A program made the translations under genes and the position numbers. 64,000 nucleotides of DNA from Ginglymostoma cirratum (lineage: Eukaryota). Location of the stretch: positions 19,432,034 to 19,496,033 of the forward strand of contig JAHRHZ010000004.1 of NCBI GenBank assembly GCA_024137785.1, in the 5' to 3' direction. Below, piece by piece: positions 1,062 to 62,345 of this stretch (positions are counted from its first letter, which is position 1; every line of letters starts with the position of its first letter). Below the pieces are notes generated by a model that had not been told where the DNA came from, ran no database searches, and saw only the letters and a program-made list of their open reading frames with translations.

Positions 1062-30084
<29,023 letters not shown>

Positions 30085-44836: not shown

Positions 44837-46682
<1,846 letters not shown>

Positions 46683-46699
46683 AAATTGCAGCCTCTGCT

Positions 46700-47320
46700 T
46701 CCTCCTGGCTGGGGGCAGCGTGTCCTCAGGCACCGCTTCACTCGGTGGCCGCTCTCCCCCTGCTCTCAGTGGTGGGGAGGGGGGGGGGGAAGGGAGAAGT
46801 GGGGCCAGTCCTCCCGGACCCTTGAACCGTTCACCCTCCCCTCCCCCGTCCTCCCTCACTCTCAGTCAGTCAGTCCTATCCCTACACAAACAGCAGCCCG
46901 CCCTCCCACCCCCCACTCCCCTTCCCCCTCGGAATCCCTCACATGCGCCACATTGCTGCCGAGGCTCTCTCCCTGCCGCAGTTACAAATTGATCCGCCCC
47001 ACAGTCGATAAATAATTCAGAGGCAGGGCTTAATGGGGAATGGGAGGTAGCAGCAGTAAAGTCTAGAGTCGGGGGTGAAAGACCCTGAAAAGGCTGAGTT
47101 TTTTGGGGGTAGGATAGGGAAAGATCAGGAAGGTGGAGTTATTTTTCTCCCCCCCCCCCGCCTTGTAGCCGTGGCTGCAGAGCCGCCCTCCCCGGGAGGT
47201 GGTGACATTGCAGCGCCCAGGCACGGCTTTCTGTATAACTGCATGTGTTGCTCGTTCTGTATTCATCAGCACAGTACCGCTCGTATCAAACCCACAAATT
47301 CGCACCACACCGTGAACTAT
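46700..47320 (-). promoter_or_regulatory. GC/CpG-rich TMEM240 5'UTR and promoter region
   Basis: Many CpGs and GC boxes (CCGCCC at ~46897, ~46993, ~47183) in an otherwise CpG-poor window, immediately upstream of the TMEM240 ATG. Confidence 0.6.
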
Positions 47321-47431: not shown

Positions 47432-47596
47432 GAAGCTTCACGTTGGAACACTTTGCGCCATCGTTAGATGGAGACTCTGTTCTACAAGAGAGATTCATTC
47501 GGACACGTTACAGGACCAGCGCCGAGCAGCGGTTCAAACTTAAAATAAACTATAAATTATATACAGATCAGCACCGCAGAGCCCACCGCCCCGCCC

Positions 47597-47698
47597 TCAG
47601 TAGAAGCAGACAGTGTGAAGGAAGGTCCGGCCGCTCTTCTCCTCCAGCTCCTGGATAAGCTCATCGATCTCATTCTCCATGTCTTCAGTCCGCTGGAT
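47597..47698 (-). CDS. SSU72: SSU72 exon 5 (coding part to TGA)
   Basis: gtttag|ATC ... TAC TGA, 102 bp. Confidence 0.96.
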   Translation of the reverse strand: MQRTEDMENEIDELIQELEEKSGRTFLHTVCFY

Positions 47699-50600
47699 CT
47701 AAACACAACCAACATGGCAAAAAGGTCAACGTTGAACAGCGGGATCGTGAAAGGACTGAGCTGGAAGTTGAGGAAGACAGAAGAGGGAGGGAAGAAGAGT
47801 AAGGAGAAGGAAGTGAAAAGAGAAAGGGAAGAGGAACTCAAGAACGCAATGCCAGCTGACCTCTGCTCCAAATGATTCAACTAGAGGTTGGTTAAAAATG
47901 GAGTCTCACGAGTCGAGGACAACTAAAAACAATCTTGAATACTCCTTCGGTATTTGGGGAGGGGGGGCGAAGGGAATCGAATCTATCACAAACCACAACT
48001 TAAACGTATCCACCAATATTTCAGCCACTTTCCCAGTTCCAGCTGAGGGCTCAGCCTTCCCCTCAGACCTGACCTCTTGTGAACCACAGTCACTGGGAGG
48101 AGCCAACAGGGGCTCGTCCAGGGCTCCCCAGGCTGGGCTATGGACTCCTAACCCAAATGCAGCACGGCACCGTGTTGTTTCAGGTAGTTTTGCCCCCGTT
48201 TGGATTCAGCCTACAGCCTGGCGCACCCCTCCCATTTTATTTCACGACCTGTGCTCCAGTCGAGAACAGTCAAGCCTGTTTTTCAAAACCACCCTTTTCC
48301 TCCTCTTAATTCCCTCCCACCCATAAAACGTCAAACTGTAGAAACATAGTAACTTTTTTTTAAAAAGGTGTAGCGGAACAATAACTCCAGCTAACGCAGT
48401 AGTTTCAGAAAGTGACTAGAGTTTACATGGAGAGATTGCACTTTCCTGTGTAAGTTTCAATTCGGGGGGGGGGGGGAAGTGGTAGATGGATAATCTTCTA
48501 ATTTTTAAAAATGACAGTGACAAAAGTATACAATTGGTATGGCAGATTAAAAATGAACTAAGATGTTAGACTGTAGAATGTTCATCCAAGACTAAATTCA
48601 CATTGGGATGGGAGGGGGGGTGGTTAAAATTCTTAGGTTGCAGGGACTTGGGGAAAGGGGCGAGAACAGGGGGATGATTACCAGCAGTCACTCCCTTCCT
48701 ACTGCACAGTCCTGCCTTAAGTACCATGTTCTAACTGGAGGCCATTTAAATTGTGGAAGCATTGAGCTGCTATAACGGAAACACTGGGTCCCATCAAGGA
48801 TGGGCAAGCTTAATTACCCTATTTGCTGGGTTTCTCACAGCATTACCATGGGAACAGCCTAAAAGCAGGACTGAGCATTTCCCTGCAGTGGCAAAGTAAA
48901 TGCATACTTCTGCTGTGGGCTCAGTGGCAATTGTGCAGAGCAGGTAGCAATGTCAGAGTCAGAAATACCTTGGGGATGGGAAGTTCCTCCACTTGCAAAC
49001 AGGACTCCATTGGCAGCGTCAGCTGCAGCTCAGTTGGGCACACGTTTGCCTGAGTCATAAGGTTCTGGGTTCAAGTCCAACACTGAGCTGAGCGCAAAAA
49101 ACAACTTTTTTTGGGGAGGTGGGGCAGGAGGAAAGAGTTTGTTTTGATTCCAGAAAGGAGAGAAGACAGAAAACTAAAGACTAGTTAATCAAACATCAAA
49201 AACAGGGAAAATGCTATAATCTATTAGGGATGTGTTAATGGAGCACTTAGGATATCAAATAATTATGCAGCAGCTACAGATTTATGAAAGGCAGGTTGTG
49301 TTTGACAAATCTCATTTCTGTAGCTGTAACTAGCTCATTAGGGAAGGGGGGGGGAAGTGGATATGAAGCACTGGATTTTCAAAAAACATTTAATAAGTCA
49401 TCCATCATGCATGAGGTTATTATACAAAAATTTATGGCTCATGGGACTGCAGTTAAGAACTACAGATCCAAACAGCAGGAATAAACAGGCCATTTCCAGG
49501 TAGGCAGGTTCTATCAAGTGGGGTACTGTGAATGTCACCACTTAGGTCTCAAGTGTTCACAATCTAAAACACTGCCTTAGATGGAGGGGACGGAGTGTAT
49601 TGTATCCAAGTTTCTGATTATTACGTTGCAAGTGGCTGCAAAGGAATAGGGAAAGACTAACTGAATGGGCGTGTGTGTGCGTGTGTGTGTGTGTGTGGGG
49701 AAGCATATAAAGTTATCTACTAAGGAAAAAAAATAGGAAAAGCAGTTTATTTCTTTGAATGCAACATCTGGGAATTTAGTATTTAGGAGATGTGTATTCT
49801 TGTACATGAATAAAAAAAATTAAAGCATAAAAGAGTGAAGAAGTTTTACTGCAATTGTATGGCACCCTGATGAGACCACACCTGTGAGTACTGTGTATTG
49901 CTTTAGTCTCTTTACGTAAGGATATACTATCTTTGGAAGGAGTGCAGTAATGATTCACTGGAATGATTCCTAGGATGAGGAACCGGCCATTAAGGAGCGA
50001 TCAAGCAGATAGACTACATTCTGAAATCTGAAGAATGAGAGATTACCCCAATGAAAAATAAAAATATTAAAAAGGCTTTGATAGGGTAGATACTGGAAGG
50101 ATGCTTCCCTTGACCACAGAGACTACAAGGAAGGGTTAGAGTCACAGAACAAAGGGGTTGCTGTTTATCAGGCTAGGAAAGAAAGTTTCACTCAGAATTG
50201 TGGACCTTCGGAATTCGCTACTAAAGACAGCAGTGTATGCTCAGTTGTTGAGTCCATTCAAGACAGATGGATACATTTTTGGATACAAAGATAAGGGATT
50301 ATAGAGTGTGGGAGGGGAGATCAACTATGGTCTTTCTGAACAGTTGAGCAAGTTCAAAAAAATGGACAGATCATCTATTTGCGCCCCTGCATTTTATACT
50401 CTTATAGCAAAATCATTAAGTGCAAGTCTGCTAAGTATATTTTGGGAGAAATTGAGCCAATAGGAACTGAATTCCAGCAGTGTTCTTCCCTTCAGGTTGC
50501 CTCTTATGGTTAGGTTTTGAATCGACAGTGTAGAAGTTTGTCTAAAACCATGACAAACAATCAGCTTGAAAGACCACTTCTTTTCACTATTACCAAGTGA

Positions 50601-51925
50601 ACAGAGAATGAGCTTAACTGGGAACAGAGGTTAATTTTTAGCAATGAAACAGAATTTCTTCACTTTGTCCTCCCAAATGTATTTTACTCAAATGCAGTTC
50701 TCTTCGGTCAGTGCACAGCGTGGACGTCATTGATAATTGGATACTTTCTATGAATTTTGCTACCTGGTAAGTGTCCTAGTGTTCTGCAAAATACTCAGCA
50801 TGAGACTTTATGGCACATTTCACACTTTCTAAGATTTTGAGGCTTTGCAATTAACATTCCCACACTATGAATGTAAACCAAACCGTTTATGTTAAATATC
50901 ACTACAGAAGCCATTCTGTCAGCTTCTTGTTATACAGGAAATATAGAACATTAATAGTTGCACAGAATAGGTAATGTCAGTGAAAGGAGAGACAACATTC
51001 TCAGAGGAATTGTTATTTCAGAAAACAACTACATGAGTAATTTCAATATTTTGCCATCAACAGTATGTTATCAGCTTTACCCAAAATAGACTTCAGGAAT
51101 CAAACTCGAATACTTTTAATCCAATTTTGCCGGGGATACAGCTGCAGTAAAAATGGCATTGGTGTAACAAGCTTGGAGCATCATAGCGAAGATCCTAGCA
51201 TTAAGCATTCTGAAAGACTTCAATTATTGTTCTAACAAAAATGGCTCAATTTCTACTGATTGTTCCGCACTCAAACCACAGTCACCTTCTGTAGAAGGCA
51301 TGCCAAATTGGTGCACTTACCAACATGTTGCAAAACATGTTCAATGTTGATTAGTCCATCACGTGACAATAACTATGTAAAATTCTTACAAAAAAGTCAA
51401 AATTGCAACACGAATAAAATGTGTTAAGTGTTCAGTAAAACAGATACATTCACCTGCAAACATTTGGCTGGATTACAGGAGATCGCATTTGGATTCATTG
51501 AGATGTTATTCTGTGTTGTGTGCTGTCTGATATTCTTTCCCAGTCCTCCCAATACACAAAAGGTGCAACACTTACACATTGGCACAGTTCACAAATGAGG
51601 AAAGCTCCGATTGTGGCTTCTTCATGATTATCCTGAATGTCCACGTTTATGACATGCACTGACTGGAATGTCTCCTGTTCTCTCGAATTCAGATCTGGGA
51701 AATCATAATACGGGGGCATCAGCAAACCACGTTTCATAAGCAGCAAGGTCAAAGGCTTGGCGAACACAAGGGATGGCCATTTTACCTTCAAGCACCTGAT
51801 CGTATACCCGTTCCTCACAGGTCACTATTAGATCAAACTGGTCTTTGCAGGTCTGGAAACGTTCTGGTCGAGATTTTATCCGCTTGTTTCTGTCCAACAT
51901 GTGAAGAATTCCGTTCTGTGTATAT
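47597..51925 (-). CDS. SSU72: RNA polymerase II CTD phosphatase SSU72, last three coding exons (exons 1-2 lie beyond the window end)
   Basis: complement(join(47597-47698,51576-51694,51786-51925)): YTQNGILHMLDRNKRIKSRPERFQTCKDQFDLIVTCEERVYDQVLED-LNSREQETFQSVHVINVDIQDNHEEATIGAFLICELCQC-IQRTEDMENEIDELIQELEEKSGRTFLHTVCFY*. Confidence 0.97.
49150..50405 (+). mobile_element. Decayed CR1 LINE RT region
   Basis: MKGRLCLTNL, ALDFQKTFNK, GAGACCACACCTG..GAGTACTGTGTA, GAATTGTGGACCTTCGGAATTC. Confidence 0.8.
49670..49698. repeat. (GT)n microsatellite
   Basis: CGTGTGTGTGCGTGTGTGTGTGTGTGTG. Confidence 0.9.
51576..51694 (-). CDS. SSU72: SSU72 exon 4 (catalytic Asp loop VDIQDNHEEA)
   Basis: ttcccag|AT ... 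TGT|gtaagt, 119 bp. Confidence 0.96.
51786..51925 (-). CDS. SSU72: SSU72 exon 3
   Basis: gtgcag|A TAT ... GAA G|gtaaaa, 140 bp. Confidence 0.95.
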
Positions 51926-53139: not shown

Positions 53140-53425
53140 GGGCAGCACGGTGGCTCGGTGGTTAGCACTGCTGCCTCACAGCAAAGGCCCGGGTTCGATT
53201 CCCCCTTGGGCAACTGTGTGGAGTTTGCACATTCTCCCCCAAGCTGTGTGGGTTTCCTCTCTCAGTCCAAAGACGTGCAGGTTAGGTGGATTGGCCATGC
53301 TTAATTGACCATAGTGTTCAGGAATGTTTAGATTAGGTGGGTTTGGGGTGTAGGTCTGGGTGGGATGCTCAGAGGGTCAGTGTAGACTTGTTGGGCCGAA
53401 GGGCCTGTTTCCACACTAAGGGTTA
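53140..53425 (+). mobile_element. HE1-like V-SINE
   Basis: GGGCAGCACGGTGGCTCGGTGGTTAGCAC..GGGTTCGATTCC..GGGCCGAAGGGCCTGTTTCCACACT. Confidence 0.9.
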
Positions 53426-54375
53426 TATGGAATACACAACTCAGTCATCACAAACAGTGATGATGCTGCCTGGAAAGTTGTAATCAGATGAGTTACAGCA
53501 TGGACAGTTTGATGGTTTGGATGACTGCAGTGAACAAAGTTTTATAAAGCCCAGCAAGTTTAACAAATCACTAGTGTCGATACAACAGCCACATGTAAAC
53601 TACTCAAACTAACTAGCTTCCTTTGGTACTGAACTAAATATTAGCCATATGGTCATATTATGTAGACTAAATCTCACCCGACAGCAGCAAGTAGCTCAGA
53701 ACAGTTGGTGCTTTCAGTTTGTCGAGAACCTCATTTATACGGATATTTCAACTCTCTTCTCAAGTCCTTCAAATGATGATTGTTTGGCAGAGTGAATATC
53801 CTATTAACCATTTGCCATCTAATTTCTATTAGAAAAAATCCTGCTACTTTAATCATTTGCAAAAACAGAGCACCAATAACAATCACTCACGTGAGAACAT
53901 GCATTTGTATTGGAAACATCTTGACTGTTCTTAAAAAGTTCTCCCTAAAATGAGGGGAGAAGGTTTAAGATTTGACACACCAGTGATCAGCTCACTAACT
54001 CAGTAACCCATGAAGATAGCTAACTTTTGAGGTTGGGGACTAAAAAATCCAAACACTACTTTCATGTCAAAAAAAAAAATTGCTTGTTCCATCTCACTAG
54101 AATTAGCTGTTTAATCACTGGAGAATTCCAAAGCTGACATTTTTTCCTCAGTAGCATTATAAGAAGAAAATAATGAAAATAAATTTAAACCTCAAATGTT
54201 TTAGAATGGGGGCTGTTATCTAGCTTTTAAGGGTAGAGTAGTATGCTCGATGATCAAGTTATTCACTATATGGCCAGTTACAAATCACCAGCAATTTGGA
54301 ATACAGAAATGCCTTAAAAAGCAATCTGACAGAATAGGATTATGGAAAGGTGGCTGTCAAGATAAAATTAGGCAG

Positions 54376-54596
54376 TAAAAGTAGTTGCTGGAAAAGCTCA
54401 GCAGGTCTGGTGGCACCTGTGAAGACAAATCACAGTTAACGTTTCAGGTCCGGTGACCTTTCCTCAGAACTTGTGTCACCGGACCCGAAACATTAACTCT
54501 GATTTTTCTTTACACGTGCTGCCAGACCTGCTGAGTTTTTCCAGCAACTTCTGTTTTTGTTCCTAATTTACAGCATCCGCAGCTCTTTCGATTTTT
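54376..54596. mobile_element. Fold-back Penelope-like element with 14-bp TSD
   Basis: ATAAAATTAGGCAG at 54362-54375 and 54597-54610; same family as 18988-19232. Confidence 0.8.
54434..54471 (-). ncRNA. Minimal type I hammerhead-ribozyme-like motif
   Basis: AGUU-CUGAGGA-A-AGGUC-ACCG-GACCU-GAAA-CG-UU-AACU: stem I AGUU/AACU, stem II AGGUC/GACCU, both core boxes intact. Confidence 0.55.
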
Positions 54597-57324
54597 ATAA
54601 AATTAGGCAGACTACTTCACAAATATGAAAGGAACTGCATGAGCAAACTCTGCAAGGATTACATTGAATTCACAAAAATGAATCTCACTTACACACATTT
54701 GGTGAACTCAGGGAAGTCTGACCGTCTGACCCAAAGGTTCAGCCAGTTGGGACACAAGAAAACCTGGTGCATGAATTATGCTAAAGATTGGCTTGTGTTG
54801 CTTTGGAAGTACCCCACAGATGAGAAGATACATGCTCCAATATATCCCACAGAAAAGCAATGTCAGAGCAGTTTAGTTTTGGACACAAATTCAAGTTTTG
54901 TCTCTCAACATCAAAAACTACTGAAGTGCACAAACACAACTGTATCTCTATCAAGCAATGTGACATCAAAATGCTGCGGATTCTATTTCTAACTTGTCAC
55001 TGTGCTTTGGCTGCCACTGTATGTGTACACATCAGCCTCTAGTAGAGGTAAGCAAATTGCTTAGCCTGGTTTATTCTTGAATGCAGAAATTGGTCATCCC
55101 ATTGAATGCTACCATTCAGTTTTCTCCCCACACAATGATTTGATAAATTGTTTGTAGTTATCTTGTTCAGTAATTAGCTTGTAAATTTCTTACAACTTAG
55201 CACTGGAACTAAACTGTATTAACATTTAATGGCAATTCTGGTACATTTTAATTTGCTACAACTTTCTCTAATAATGAGAAACCTGAATGGGAGAGAGAAG
55301 ATAACAATTGCTTCAGATGGAGATAAAGAACTGGTATTTAAAATAACATTCTTACAAACATCACTTTTCATAGCTTCAGGACAACCCCAAACAAATTACT
55401 TCTGAGGACTGGTCATCTTCAGGTCAGGAAATACAGCTGTAAATCACTTATTTTGGAGTGAGCTGAATTGGTATCTGTATTCAGAACCAAAGCACAGTGA
55501 CAAGTTAGAAACAAAATGTGGGGTAAGTGCACATCAATATCCATCTCCTACTCAACTTCAGCCAGCTTGTTGAGGGGTGGTACTGATGCTCAGCCAGCCA
55601 GTCTCAAAAGGAGTTACTGCAAAATGTTCCAGAGTATACAGCCAGGCATACGACCATGTCTGTCAAATAGTTGGAAGTCATTGTCCATCTGTCACCAGCT
55701 AATGTCAGCGCATGGCACTGCTTAGAGGGAAGAAAGTTTTATTAAAAAGGAGTGTGTAACTGAGCCACACCAGTGGAGGGCAGAGATTTGATTTATGGTC
55801 TGAAAATTAATTTTTAAAAATGTGCAAAAGTACAATTAGCCTTTCGGTGATTGTAACAATGGCAGTGGTGGTGTTTTATTTCGGGGGGGGGGGCGCGCAG
55901 AGAGAGAGAGAAAATACACAAAGTTCTCAAACTAGTTTCTAATAAAACTAGAAAACGTGGGCATGTGCAGACTGGGCTGTGCCTGGCCAGGCCCATCTGT
56001 TTCACCCGAAGTGGAAAGCTTACTGAGAGTTATTATTCAGGGCCACATGAAGAATGGCCACTGGACAAGATAGATAGCCAAGCCGTAATGGAAGAAACCT
56101 GGCCTAGCAATGGGGAGCAAAGAGAAAACAGCACAAAAAGGCAACTTAAAAGTCAAAGACCACAACGTGGTTTATACTGAGGTTGGTCAGTATAAACCAA
56201 CCAAGGCAAGTAAAACATTGGTGAATCAAGGTAATTCAAACAACAGACATCATTTAGAGGTGCGTGAAAAATACCAAATGGAAGAAGGAACTGATAAATG
56301 AAAATCAAAAAGATACATTATGGAGTAGGAAGTTTAGTAATTTGAAGAAACGTTAGATGGAAACCCATGCATTACTGTTGTTCGGATGCTGTCAAATAGT
56401 AGTTGTGTTAGTGTGTAGTATATGTATGGCAGTTGACTTTCTTAACCTCCAGATCATACCTCATACTTCATTCCTTCTCCTGGATCCTAGTGCAATTAAC
56501 TAGTTACCAATGAATGAACACAAGGCTAAATCTTGCAACTGTCAGAAATTTAGCAATGTCTGGAAATGTTAAAAAGCAAAGCAAAAGCAGTTGCCAATTC
56601 AGAATATGTTCATAATAACACCGCGATAAACATTGTGCTGAGCACAAAGATTTATTAAAAATATATAAATCACTGCAGACTTTTTACAATGATCTGAAGG
56701 TTAGCGGAATAAACCGGCCTACCTTAATTCAGCAATTATATTCACAATTGTTCTGTCTACAACTGTTTACATTTAGTTGAACACATACCTGTGCCCAGCA
56801 CAGAAAGTCAGGGTCCATTCTCTCTCGCTGAGATATTTGATGATTAGCACTTGCTTTCCATCTTGAACACATCAAAGAGAGTAGGCCACTTGCTCTCTGG
56901 CATCCTCAGGTGCAAGTTATGCTGAAGGTGCAACTTGAGGCATTAAAACATTTTGCACTTTAAGTCATTTTAATAATGAGACGGTGAGGAGGTAGAAGTG
57001 AGGGGAACAGTGGTAGAGCATTTAAGTCAGATTTGTGGATCATCTTGGGAAGCAAGCAGGGCTTCAACCTTTCCTAGTGCAACACAGAATCATTACCAGA
57101 CCTCATGTAGAGCAAAAGGTTGACCAATAGCTGAGCATGTCAAGGAGGGGAGGGGTTGGGGGAAAGATTTTGCTTTTACTGATTGAGATTGGTGCATAAT
57201 CTTTCCAAAACCTACAACAGACATTCAAGAAACTTATAAAACTGTACCTGCTTGAACAATTGACTGCGCCACTGTTGGTCATCAAGCCCCCAAACTTTCT
57301 AATAAAATCCACATCCTGGTTGTT

Positions 57325-57515
57325 GAAAAAAAATAATTTGCTGGAAACACTCAGTAGGTCGGCAGCATGTTGCAAGACAAAAACAGACTTCTGAAGTCAT
57401 ATGATTCATTAATACTGGTTCTCTGTTTTCATAGGTTCTGAAACATCTTCAGAAGTTTGTTTGTGTTACCAGATGCTGCCAAGCCCATTGAGTATTAGTC
57501 GCACTTTGTTTTGTC
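57325..57515. mobile_element. Highly decayed fold-back element, same class
   Basis: GGCAGCAT..AAACAGACTTCTGAAG / CTTCAGAAGTTTGTTT..ATGCTGCC. Confidence 0.5.
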
Positions 57516-58249: not shown

Positions 58250-58745
58250 TTGTACAGGACAAGATGCTATTCAGCCCATCAAATCTTGTCATTTCTTCCA
58301 AAGAGCTGTCCAATTAGTCCTACATCATTCTGTTCTCACGTTCCTGCATTTTCTCATTTGTCAAATTCCCTTTACTTTCAAATTGCTTCCACCACATCAG
58401 GCAGTGCATTCCATATCTTAACTAGTCATTGCAATAAGAAAACTCTCAGTTTTTCAGTCACTTAAAATCTGTTTCAACTGATTTTTTTTAACCCGTCAGC
58501 CACTACATACTAGATAGCAAGGTGTGGAGCTGGATGAACACAGCAGGCCAAGCAGCACCATAGGAGCAGGAAAGCTTGACGTTTCGCACCTAGACCCTAG
58601 TTCTCTTTACCTAAGCCCTTCAAGATTTTAAGCATCTGTATCAAGCTCCCTCTACAATTTTTCTGCTCTCAAGGAGAATAACCCACTTTGCTACAGTTTA
58701 TCCATTTAACCGCAATCCCTCAGTCATGAAAACTTTCTAGTCAGT
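58250..58745 (-). mobile_element. Decayed CR1-type LINE 3' end
   Basis: GCTATTCAGCCCATC, GGCAGTGCATTCCA, AAGCCCTTCAAGATTTT..CTGTATCAA antisense CR1 motifs. Confidence 0.55.
58513..58600 (-). mobile_element. Single arm of the 6.5-kb Penelope-like element, within a CR1 fragment
   Basis: GGAGCTGGATGAACACAGCAGGCCAAGCAGCA..GGAGCAGGAAAGCTTGACGTTTCG matches 6489-6546. Confidence 0.7.
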
Positions 58746-62240: not shown

Positions 62241-62242
62241 GT

Positions 62243-62345
62243 AATAACACAGTGTGGAGTTGGAGGAGCACAGCAGGCCAGGCATCAGGGGAGCAGGAAA
62301 GTTGGCATTTCGGGTCGAGACCCTTCTCAGAAAAAAATTCTCAGC
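62243..62345 (-). mobile_element. Single arm of the 6.5-kb Penelope-like element
   Basis: CACAGCAGGCCAGGCATCAGGGGAGCAGGAAAGTTGGCATTTCGGGTCGAGACCCTTCTCAGAAAAA. Confidence 0.65.

Follow-up and report, generated by a model that had tools for sequence, protein, structure and literature searches.

Minimal hammerhead ribozymes number in the thousands in animal genomes. Those carried by Penelope-like elements (PLEs) have been described as a set of core boxes accompanied by an unpaired base between positions 9 and 10.1, a G10.1-C11.1 pair and a palindromic segment at 15.2-16.2 (PMC4209133, Cervera and de la Pena 2014). That paper also describes hammerhead pairs, one on each strand and separated by 100-700 bp, as well as single motifs derived from truncated PLEs, and the sole minimal motif tested there showed no cleavage as a monomer and little as a dimer or trimer. 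Among the 56 rows of its Fig. S3, counted by eye in the extracted text, the extra base is present in 54, the junction GAAA-C-G-U-U is the commonest with 15 rows, A-U occupies 10.1-11.1 in three, and cartilaginous fish are represented in none. In the Poseidon element of Anolis carolinensis (PAc), as set out in PMC11167929, the tail lies between two start sites of reverse transcription, uncleaved RNA is the main template, the ORF begins at stem II, and initiation takes place 111-118 nt further in. The PAc hammerhead cleaves only with PLE protein, and in the RNA-seq data presented there no reads end at the cut site (PMC11167929). Regarding the insertions themselves, those of EN+ PLEs comprise an inverted 5'-truncated copy and a one-sided tail of 30-40 bp in the examples of PMC8557442, and those of rotifer PLEs carry target-site duplications of 8-10 bp in the examples of PMC3846280. 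In non-LTR retrozymes, which have been reported in one chondrichthyan genome, every unit of a direct tandem array bears its own hammerhead (PMC7229834; bioRxiv 10.64898/2026.07.22.740005).

Here, a locus of the shark Ginglymostoma cirratum is compared with these systems. The window, that is, the whole 64-kb stretch of DNA that was analysed, contains at positions 54434-54471 a real ribozyme motif of a known kind, located in an ordinary, old, probably PLE-derived stub. The element that carries the motif can with considerable confidence be regarded as the hammerhead end of a likely PLE, present twice head to head as an old insertion in an intron of SSU72, with a ribozyme that is predicted to be inactive.

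Sequence and detection of the hammerhead motif

The motif (54434-54471) is a minimal type I hammerhead on the - strand. Read from the sequence along this strand, it consists of AGUU (54471-54468), CUGAGGA (54467-54461), a single A (54460), stem II with its loop, AGGUC/ACCG/GACCU (54459-54446), GAAA (54445-54442), C-G (54441-54440), U16.1 (54439), U17 (54438) and AACU (54437-54434), and the putative cut site is predicted between 54438 and 54437. All 11 core bases are intact (CUGANGA, GAAA and U16.1), and H17 is U. The A at 54460 is the unpaired base between 9 and 10.1, the palindromic 15.2-16.2 segment reads A-C-G-U (54442-54439), and helix III is absent. Helix I has 4 bp and helix II has 5 bp, against criteria of 3-5 bp and at least 4 bp, respectively. 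The boxes, the 5-bp stem II with its tetraloop and the 4-bp stem I that the first-pass annotation had read on this strand are all present where it had placed them. In the position of the G10.1-C11.1 pair, which is highly conserved but not invariant, the motif has A10.1-U11.1 closing stem II; this is a real departure from the consensus, on which the first-pass annotation was silent.

Apart from 10.1-11.1, the motif fits the published consensus, and its earlier assignment to the minimal type I hammerheads of PLEs is sustained (PMC4209133). As in the metazoan PLE motifs in that source, CUGANGA-H, a short helix I, a 5-bp helix II, GAAA, the palindrome and U-H are found and helix III is missing; the shark copy differs from most of the rows by its A-U pair, and its link with PLEs is drawn from anatomy (PMC4209133). 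It should be noted that the extra A and the GUU triplet had both been called non-optimal. Since the extra base and C-G-U-U are common in the rows of Fig. S3, they are typical of the family and not signs of decay (PMC4209133). The part of the remark that concerns the extra A retains some catalytic basis, because such a base moderately lowers trans-cleavage in one viroid hammerhead (PMC1636495), a source whose accessible text makes no mention of the GUU triplet. The literature search yielded no paper that quantifies the consequence of A-U at 10.1-11.1.

The full descriptor comprised the core boxes, a stem II of at least 4 bp, palindromic 15.2-16.2, U-H and a stem I of at least 3 bp. Its sole match in the 64 kb is the motif at 54434-54471, and none of 500 dinucleotide shuffles matches, so that the motif lies beyond chance. 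When stem I is relaxed to at least 2 bp, two sites are matched in the 64 kb and 1/500 shuffles match. Enrichment is obtained only with the full descriptor: the loose pattern CTGANGANNNNTC occurs five times against 2.3 expected (12/100 shuffles). The Rfam hammerhead families give no match, either in the whole window at the gathering threshold or in the element at E up to 10, and the isolated 49-nt motif has a stability like that of its shuffles (z = -0.95). Both observations would suit a hammerhead likeness produced by chance arrangement in an unrelated repeat. Such an accident is nevertheless highly improbable, given the empty shuffles and a diverged second family at 6575, which has a different loop and a GUC triplet and retains the same boxes, extra base and palindrome; the fit to the published consensus, moreover, extends to the features first called odd (PMC4209133). 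Seven Rfam matches over the element, with E of 0.2-6, are weak, unrelated and attributed to chance. A site at 55402-55440 (+) has CUGAGGA, a hairpin and GAAA but neither stem I nor the palindrome; it does not satisfy the full descriptor and is probably due to chance.

Architecture and proposed origin of the fold-back insertion

The motif is carried by a fold-back insertion of 221 bp (54376-54596) composed of two head-to-head arms and bounded by an exact direct repeat of 14 bp, the left target-site duplication at 54362-54375 and the identical right copy at 54597-54610. It can be observed in the alignments that the SSU72-sense arm (54376-54471, - strand) starts at helix I and forms the tail-less end. 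The opposite, SSU72-antisense arm (54475-54556, + strand) begins within stem II, has no CUGANGA box and shows A in place of G16.2. A tail of ~40 nt (54557-54596, +) is present on one arm only, and family reads extend into the same tail, with loose ends behind 54550. The inverted repeat search returned arms of 81 nt (54377-54457 and 54475-54555) that are 86% complementary, an alignment of the two arms shows 12 differences over 82 positions (14.6%), and the 221-bp element folds as one hairpin at -124.9 kcal/mol (z = -18).

Nine loci of two related families are found in the 64-kb window, and flanking duplications were tested at eight of them, four complete fold-backs and four partial copies. Duplications flank every complete fold-back (4/4): 15 bp near 0.7 kb, 13 bp near 6.5 kb, 12 bp near 19.1 kb and 14 bp near 54.5 kb. 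Among random window pairs, 13 of 5000 reach at least 12 bp. In the four partial copies tested, no duplication above 6 bp was found (5-6 bp). All four complete fold-backs have a tail of ~35-45 nt on a single arm, and their centres all differ, as would be expected if the inversion arises anew at each insertion. Partial or decayed arms of the two families are located at 16886-16975, 2282-2335, 57327-57389, 58511-58603 and 62242-62339.

The head-to-head inversion, the tail of ~40 nt at one end and the target-site duplication resemble the complex insertions of EN+ PLEs (PMC8557442, PMC3846280). In contrast to these insertions, the shark arms have no ORF between them and both stop at or inside the hammerhead, and the duplications of the shark fold-backs measure 12-15 bp versus 8-10 bp in the rotifer PLE examples (PMC3846280). 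The arms start 4-7 bases upstream of CUGA, and the two arm ends are located ~84 and ~125 nt downstream of the stem II start, a scale similar to the 111-118 nt of PAc (PMC11167929). Also shared with PAc are the ~100 nt by which the hammerhead precedes the end of the element, the two end positions that bracket the tail, and retention of the uncut ribozyme; PAc, however, is autonomous and was tested in vitro, whereas the shark stub is known from its sequence and is compared by layout (PMC11167929). Arm ends just ahead of the ribozyme may mark the start of the element RNA, which fits the local arms and the loose contig ends.

In the mechanism proposed here, a PLE reverse transcriptase-endonuclease would make a staggered cut ~14 bp wide, and the 3' end of each nick would prime one cDNA, from two initiation sites bracketing the tail. 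Both cDNAs would subsequently copy uncleaved RNA into the hammerhead, end at or inside the motif, and become joined. For inversions, PMC3846280 puts forward self-priming on an antisense template in place of two primed cDNAs, and the window data are compatible with both the two-primer and the self-priming origin. Because its duplications are sharp, its tails one-sided and its centres varied, the family is of some use for models of PLE inversion; surveyed genome-wide, it could discriminate between these two origins and also test the neutralisation of intronic ribozymes by fold-back.

Alternatively, the palindrome might be copied whole as a non-autonomous element in its own right, either MITE-like or a hairpin SINE, with the hammerhead as a passenger or a recognition signal. 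Its shortness, its terminal inverted arms, the lack of a notable ORF and the high abundance, with nine loci in 64 kb, accord with such an element, while the centres that differ in all four complete copies, the one-sided tail and the variable length of the 12-15 bp duplications do not, making it an unlikely account. The duplications of common DNA-transposon MITEs are shorter than 12-15 bp, which also counts against it. For the preferred reading, a PLE end inserted twice head to head, the link with PLEs comes from anatomy, since no autonomous PLE with this end was found; among the nine ORFs of the window that were scanned, the single RT match is not joined to such an end. Like non-LTR retrozymes, the element is non-coding, bears a hammerhead and is argued to derive from PLEs, and it differs from them in being an inverted pair with a single intact core (PMC7229834; bioRxiv 10.64898/2026.07.22.740005), from which no unit-length circle can be released.

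From a related species, 26,916 contigs of one DNA run align to a stretch of 2,951 bp, with depth concentrated over the element; although the summed contig depth in this run is not a copy number, the great abundance of the element family is plain. In this species, two contigs extend from unique flank into both element ends and differ from the window by 26 substitutions over 957 bp and by 69 over 1,834 bp. Their flanks are 2.7-3.8% diverged from the window, and the contigs break inside the repeat. Because they enter both ends of the element from unique flank, the insertion predates the species split. The insertion is old, with arms 14.6% apart and a copy shared with the related species. Degenerate patterns for family copies matched zero stretches in metagenome contigs and zero in viral contigs. 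A printed description of this shark family was not found in a search outside which lay repeat databases, most subscription papers and the supplements of the 2026 preprint on retrozymes. One lead, MER6, was dropped, as its Repbase entry is filed under Mariner.

Fate of the core and predicted masking in SSU72 RNA

Downstream of the element, the - strand carries a 140-nt coding exon of SSU72 (51786-51925) that matches PF04722 at E 6e-21 over profile positions 71-116 and has AG/GT borders, and the next coding exon, of 119 nt (51576-51694), matches at E 1.6e-13 over positions 118-156. Since these Ssu72-matched exons lie on the - strand, the hammerhead is sense to the SSU72 intron, and the orientation given by the first-pass annotation is borne out by Pfam. 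The last SSU72 exon has a reading frame open to a stop near 47600, and no exon upstream of the element was found within the window. The intron that holds the element is at least 12 kb long, and we take it to be intron 2 from the structure of vertebrate SSU72 genes. The orientation of the motif in itself says little, because the head-to-head layout puts one hammerhead-sense arm on either strand.

The core tally covers the nine arms that reach the core region, the opposite arm of 54376-54596 being left out because it lacks the CUGANGA region. All 11 core bases are retained in two of these nine arms, and G12 is lost at a CpG in three. At a divergence of 7.3% per arm, the survival probability of an 11-base core is 0.43. 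Stem covariation among the local arms is at shuffle level (307/500). With 2/9 local arms keeping the core and no covariation, an intact core is thus expected by chance at about 0.4. In five same-family arms, mismatches amount to 7/55 in the core (12.7%) versus 33/155 elsewhere (21.3%; p = 0.23), a count that includes the 54434-54471 copy, itself picked for intactness. The core mismatch rate is numerically lower, and nine arms give little power against weak selection. Among the local paralogues, no excess core conservation is seen in the nine arms or in the five-arm mismatch test, and the core has most likely come through neutral decay intact by chance. Regarding 10.1-11.1, G-C is present in six of the nine local arms, and A10.1-U11.1 is a double change that preserves stem II pairing in one of the nine rows. 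Single changes also occur at these positions: the arm at 6566 carries an unpaired G10.1-to-A change, and at 721 it is C11.1 alone that has become U.

The cost of the hammerhead fold was computed in successive contexts. With stems I and II imposed and the core left open, the penalty for the isolated motif is 1.2 kcal/mol. The computed cost is 4.9 kcal/mol with the downstream arm alone and 32.5 kcal/mol for a just-synthesised motif preceded by the upstream arm. For the whole element, the constrained fold lies 37.4 kcal/mol above the ensemble, and the predicted pairing probability of stem II is 0.0000. By the completion of stem II, the long hairpin is already the best predicted fold. In this hairpin, the antisense arm is predicted to pair with stem II, GAAA, the cleavage site and the 3' strand of stem I, and truncation of the partner arm leaves the CUGAGGA box mostly unpaired. 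In a head-to-head element, the hammerhead-sense arm always lies downstream on its own strand, so that transcription reaches the antisense arm first. During transcription of SSU72, Pol II would yield the antisense arm first, and the emerging 5' strand and loop of stem II would be captured. The core would then never fold, and a minimal hammerhead would require a second copy anyway. The earlier claim of a working ribozyme in the SSU72 transcript had left the fold-back unweighed and is not supported, the computed masking penalty being 32-37 kcal/mol; the hammerhead is probably inactive in this transcript.

No intact dimer partner was found in the visible 12 kb of the intron, where the sense arms at 58600 and 62330 have broken or missing cores. 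For the isolated motif, rough energies give -12.1 for the active double-hammerhead versus 2 x -7.1 for two monomers, -14.5 for the 6-bp AACGUU variant and -20.0 for the best dimer, and the active dimer pairing ranks below all three. In the polyA RNA run X22, no end pile-up is listed at the cut site, although the data are thin, with ~51 fully placed reads. The flank depth in X22 is 2.48 downstream (nine bins) versus 2.07 (nearest 12) or 1.43 (all 18) upstream, without a clear step, which is compatible with no cleavage, ~51 reads being too thin to exclude a step. A further run, X23, placed one read and is uninformative, and a separate run search that listed no RNA holder carries no weight as to expression. 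On the element itself, ~350 X22 reads are piled up per direction, and because 98% of them continue into unlike sequence, the pile is attributed to other copies. Given this origin, the A>G and T>C differences in the pile are not readable as editing.

Against these results stands the reading in which the motif is a live intronic ribozyme, possibly domesticated, and cleaves SSU72 pre-mRNA with a protein or editing opening the hairpin. This reading would account for 11/11 core bases and a 4-bp stem I at the sole such site in 64 kb, for the sense orientation and for the paired double change at 10.1-11.1. Protein-assisted refolding does exist in the PLE family, since the anole hammerhead cleaves upon addition of the PLE protein (PMC11167929). 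Such a ribozyme is hardly credible, however, with the masking of 32-37 kcal/mol in place once stem II is complete, helix III absent, the cores of the remaining sense arms within the visible part of the intron broken or missing, the active dimer pairing disfavoured by the rough energies of the isolated motif, and no end pile-ups in the thin data of X22. If SSU72 pre-mRNA were cut, the motif would represent a rare case of a minimal ribozyme domesticated within a housekeeping gene that is itself conserved, which the evidence opposes. The intronic hammerheads of amniotes are canonical motifs. Like the ultraconserved copies in RECK and others, the shark motif is a type I hammerhead in a host intron; those are few and conserved, whereas it is one of many decaying copies, minimal and masked (PMC6155905).

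With the masked, PLE-derived stub as the preferred reading, the copy at 54376-54596 is in itself of little weight, minimal hammerheads being numerous and this one predicted to be masked. As a tentative proposal, to which we attach less than even credence, the shark stubs may form a fossil record of PLE insertion in which the antisense arm ahead of each ribozyme acts as a built-in safety catch. If this were true, very many copies could be tolerated in host introns in either orientation, leaving the pre-mRNA uncut.

Other fold-backs and neighbouring genes

The second-family fold-back at 6438-6666, flanked by duplications at 6425-6437 and 6667-6679, is younger, with arms 5% apart. The - strand region that it splits is LINE-like and encodes an RT, with an RVT_1 match at 5594-6322. 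At 6575 (+), this fold-back contains an intact GUC hammerhead core with a stem I of just 2 bp. For this core, which lies inside an AAA-ATPase gene on the + strand, the predicted masking is 54.6 kcal/mol. The complete fold-backs at 18988-19232 and 616-808, with duplications of 12 and 15 bp, respectively, and one-sided tails, have every core broken or missing.

The exons of the AAA-ATPase gene (2757-30081, +) are presumably ATAD3-like, judging by their motifs. TMEM240 exons, assigned with Pfam, are located at 45399-47012 (-), downstream of SSU72 (47560-51925, -), and the order AAA-ATPase, TMEM240, SSU72 is, we assume, that of human chromosome 1p36. Between the two matched SSU72 exons lies an intron of 91 nt (51695-51785), which adjoins the intron of more than 12 kb. 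The latter also contains a tRNA-type SINE-like repeat at 53143-53430, which we take to be HE1-like. Directly upstream of the element on the SSU72 strand, an inverted repeat of 31 bp (54980-55010 and 55487-55517) is 94% complementary, with its arms 476 bp apart. An assembly gap of 10 N is located at 18702-18711.
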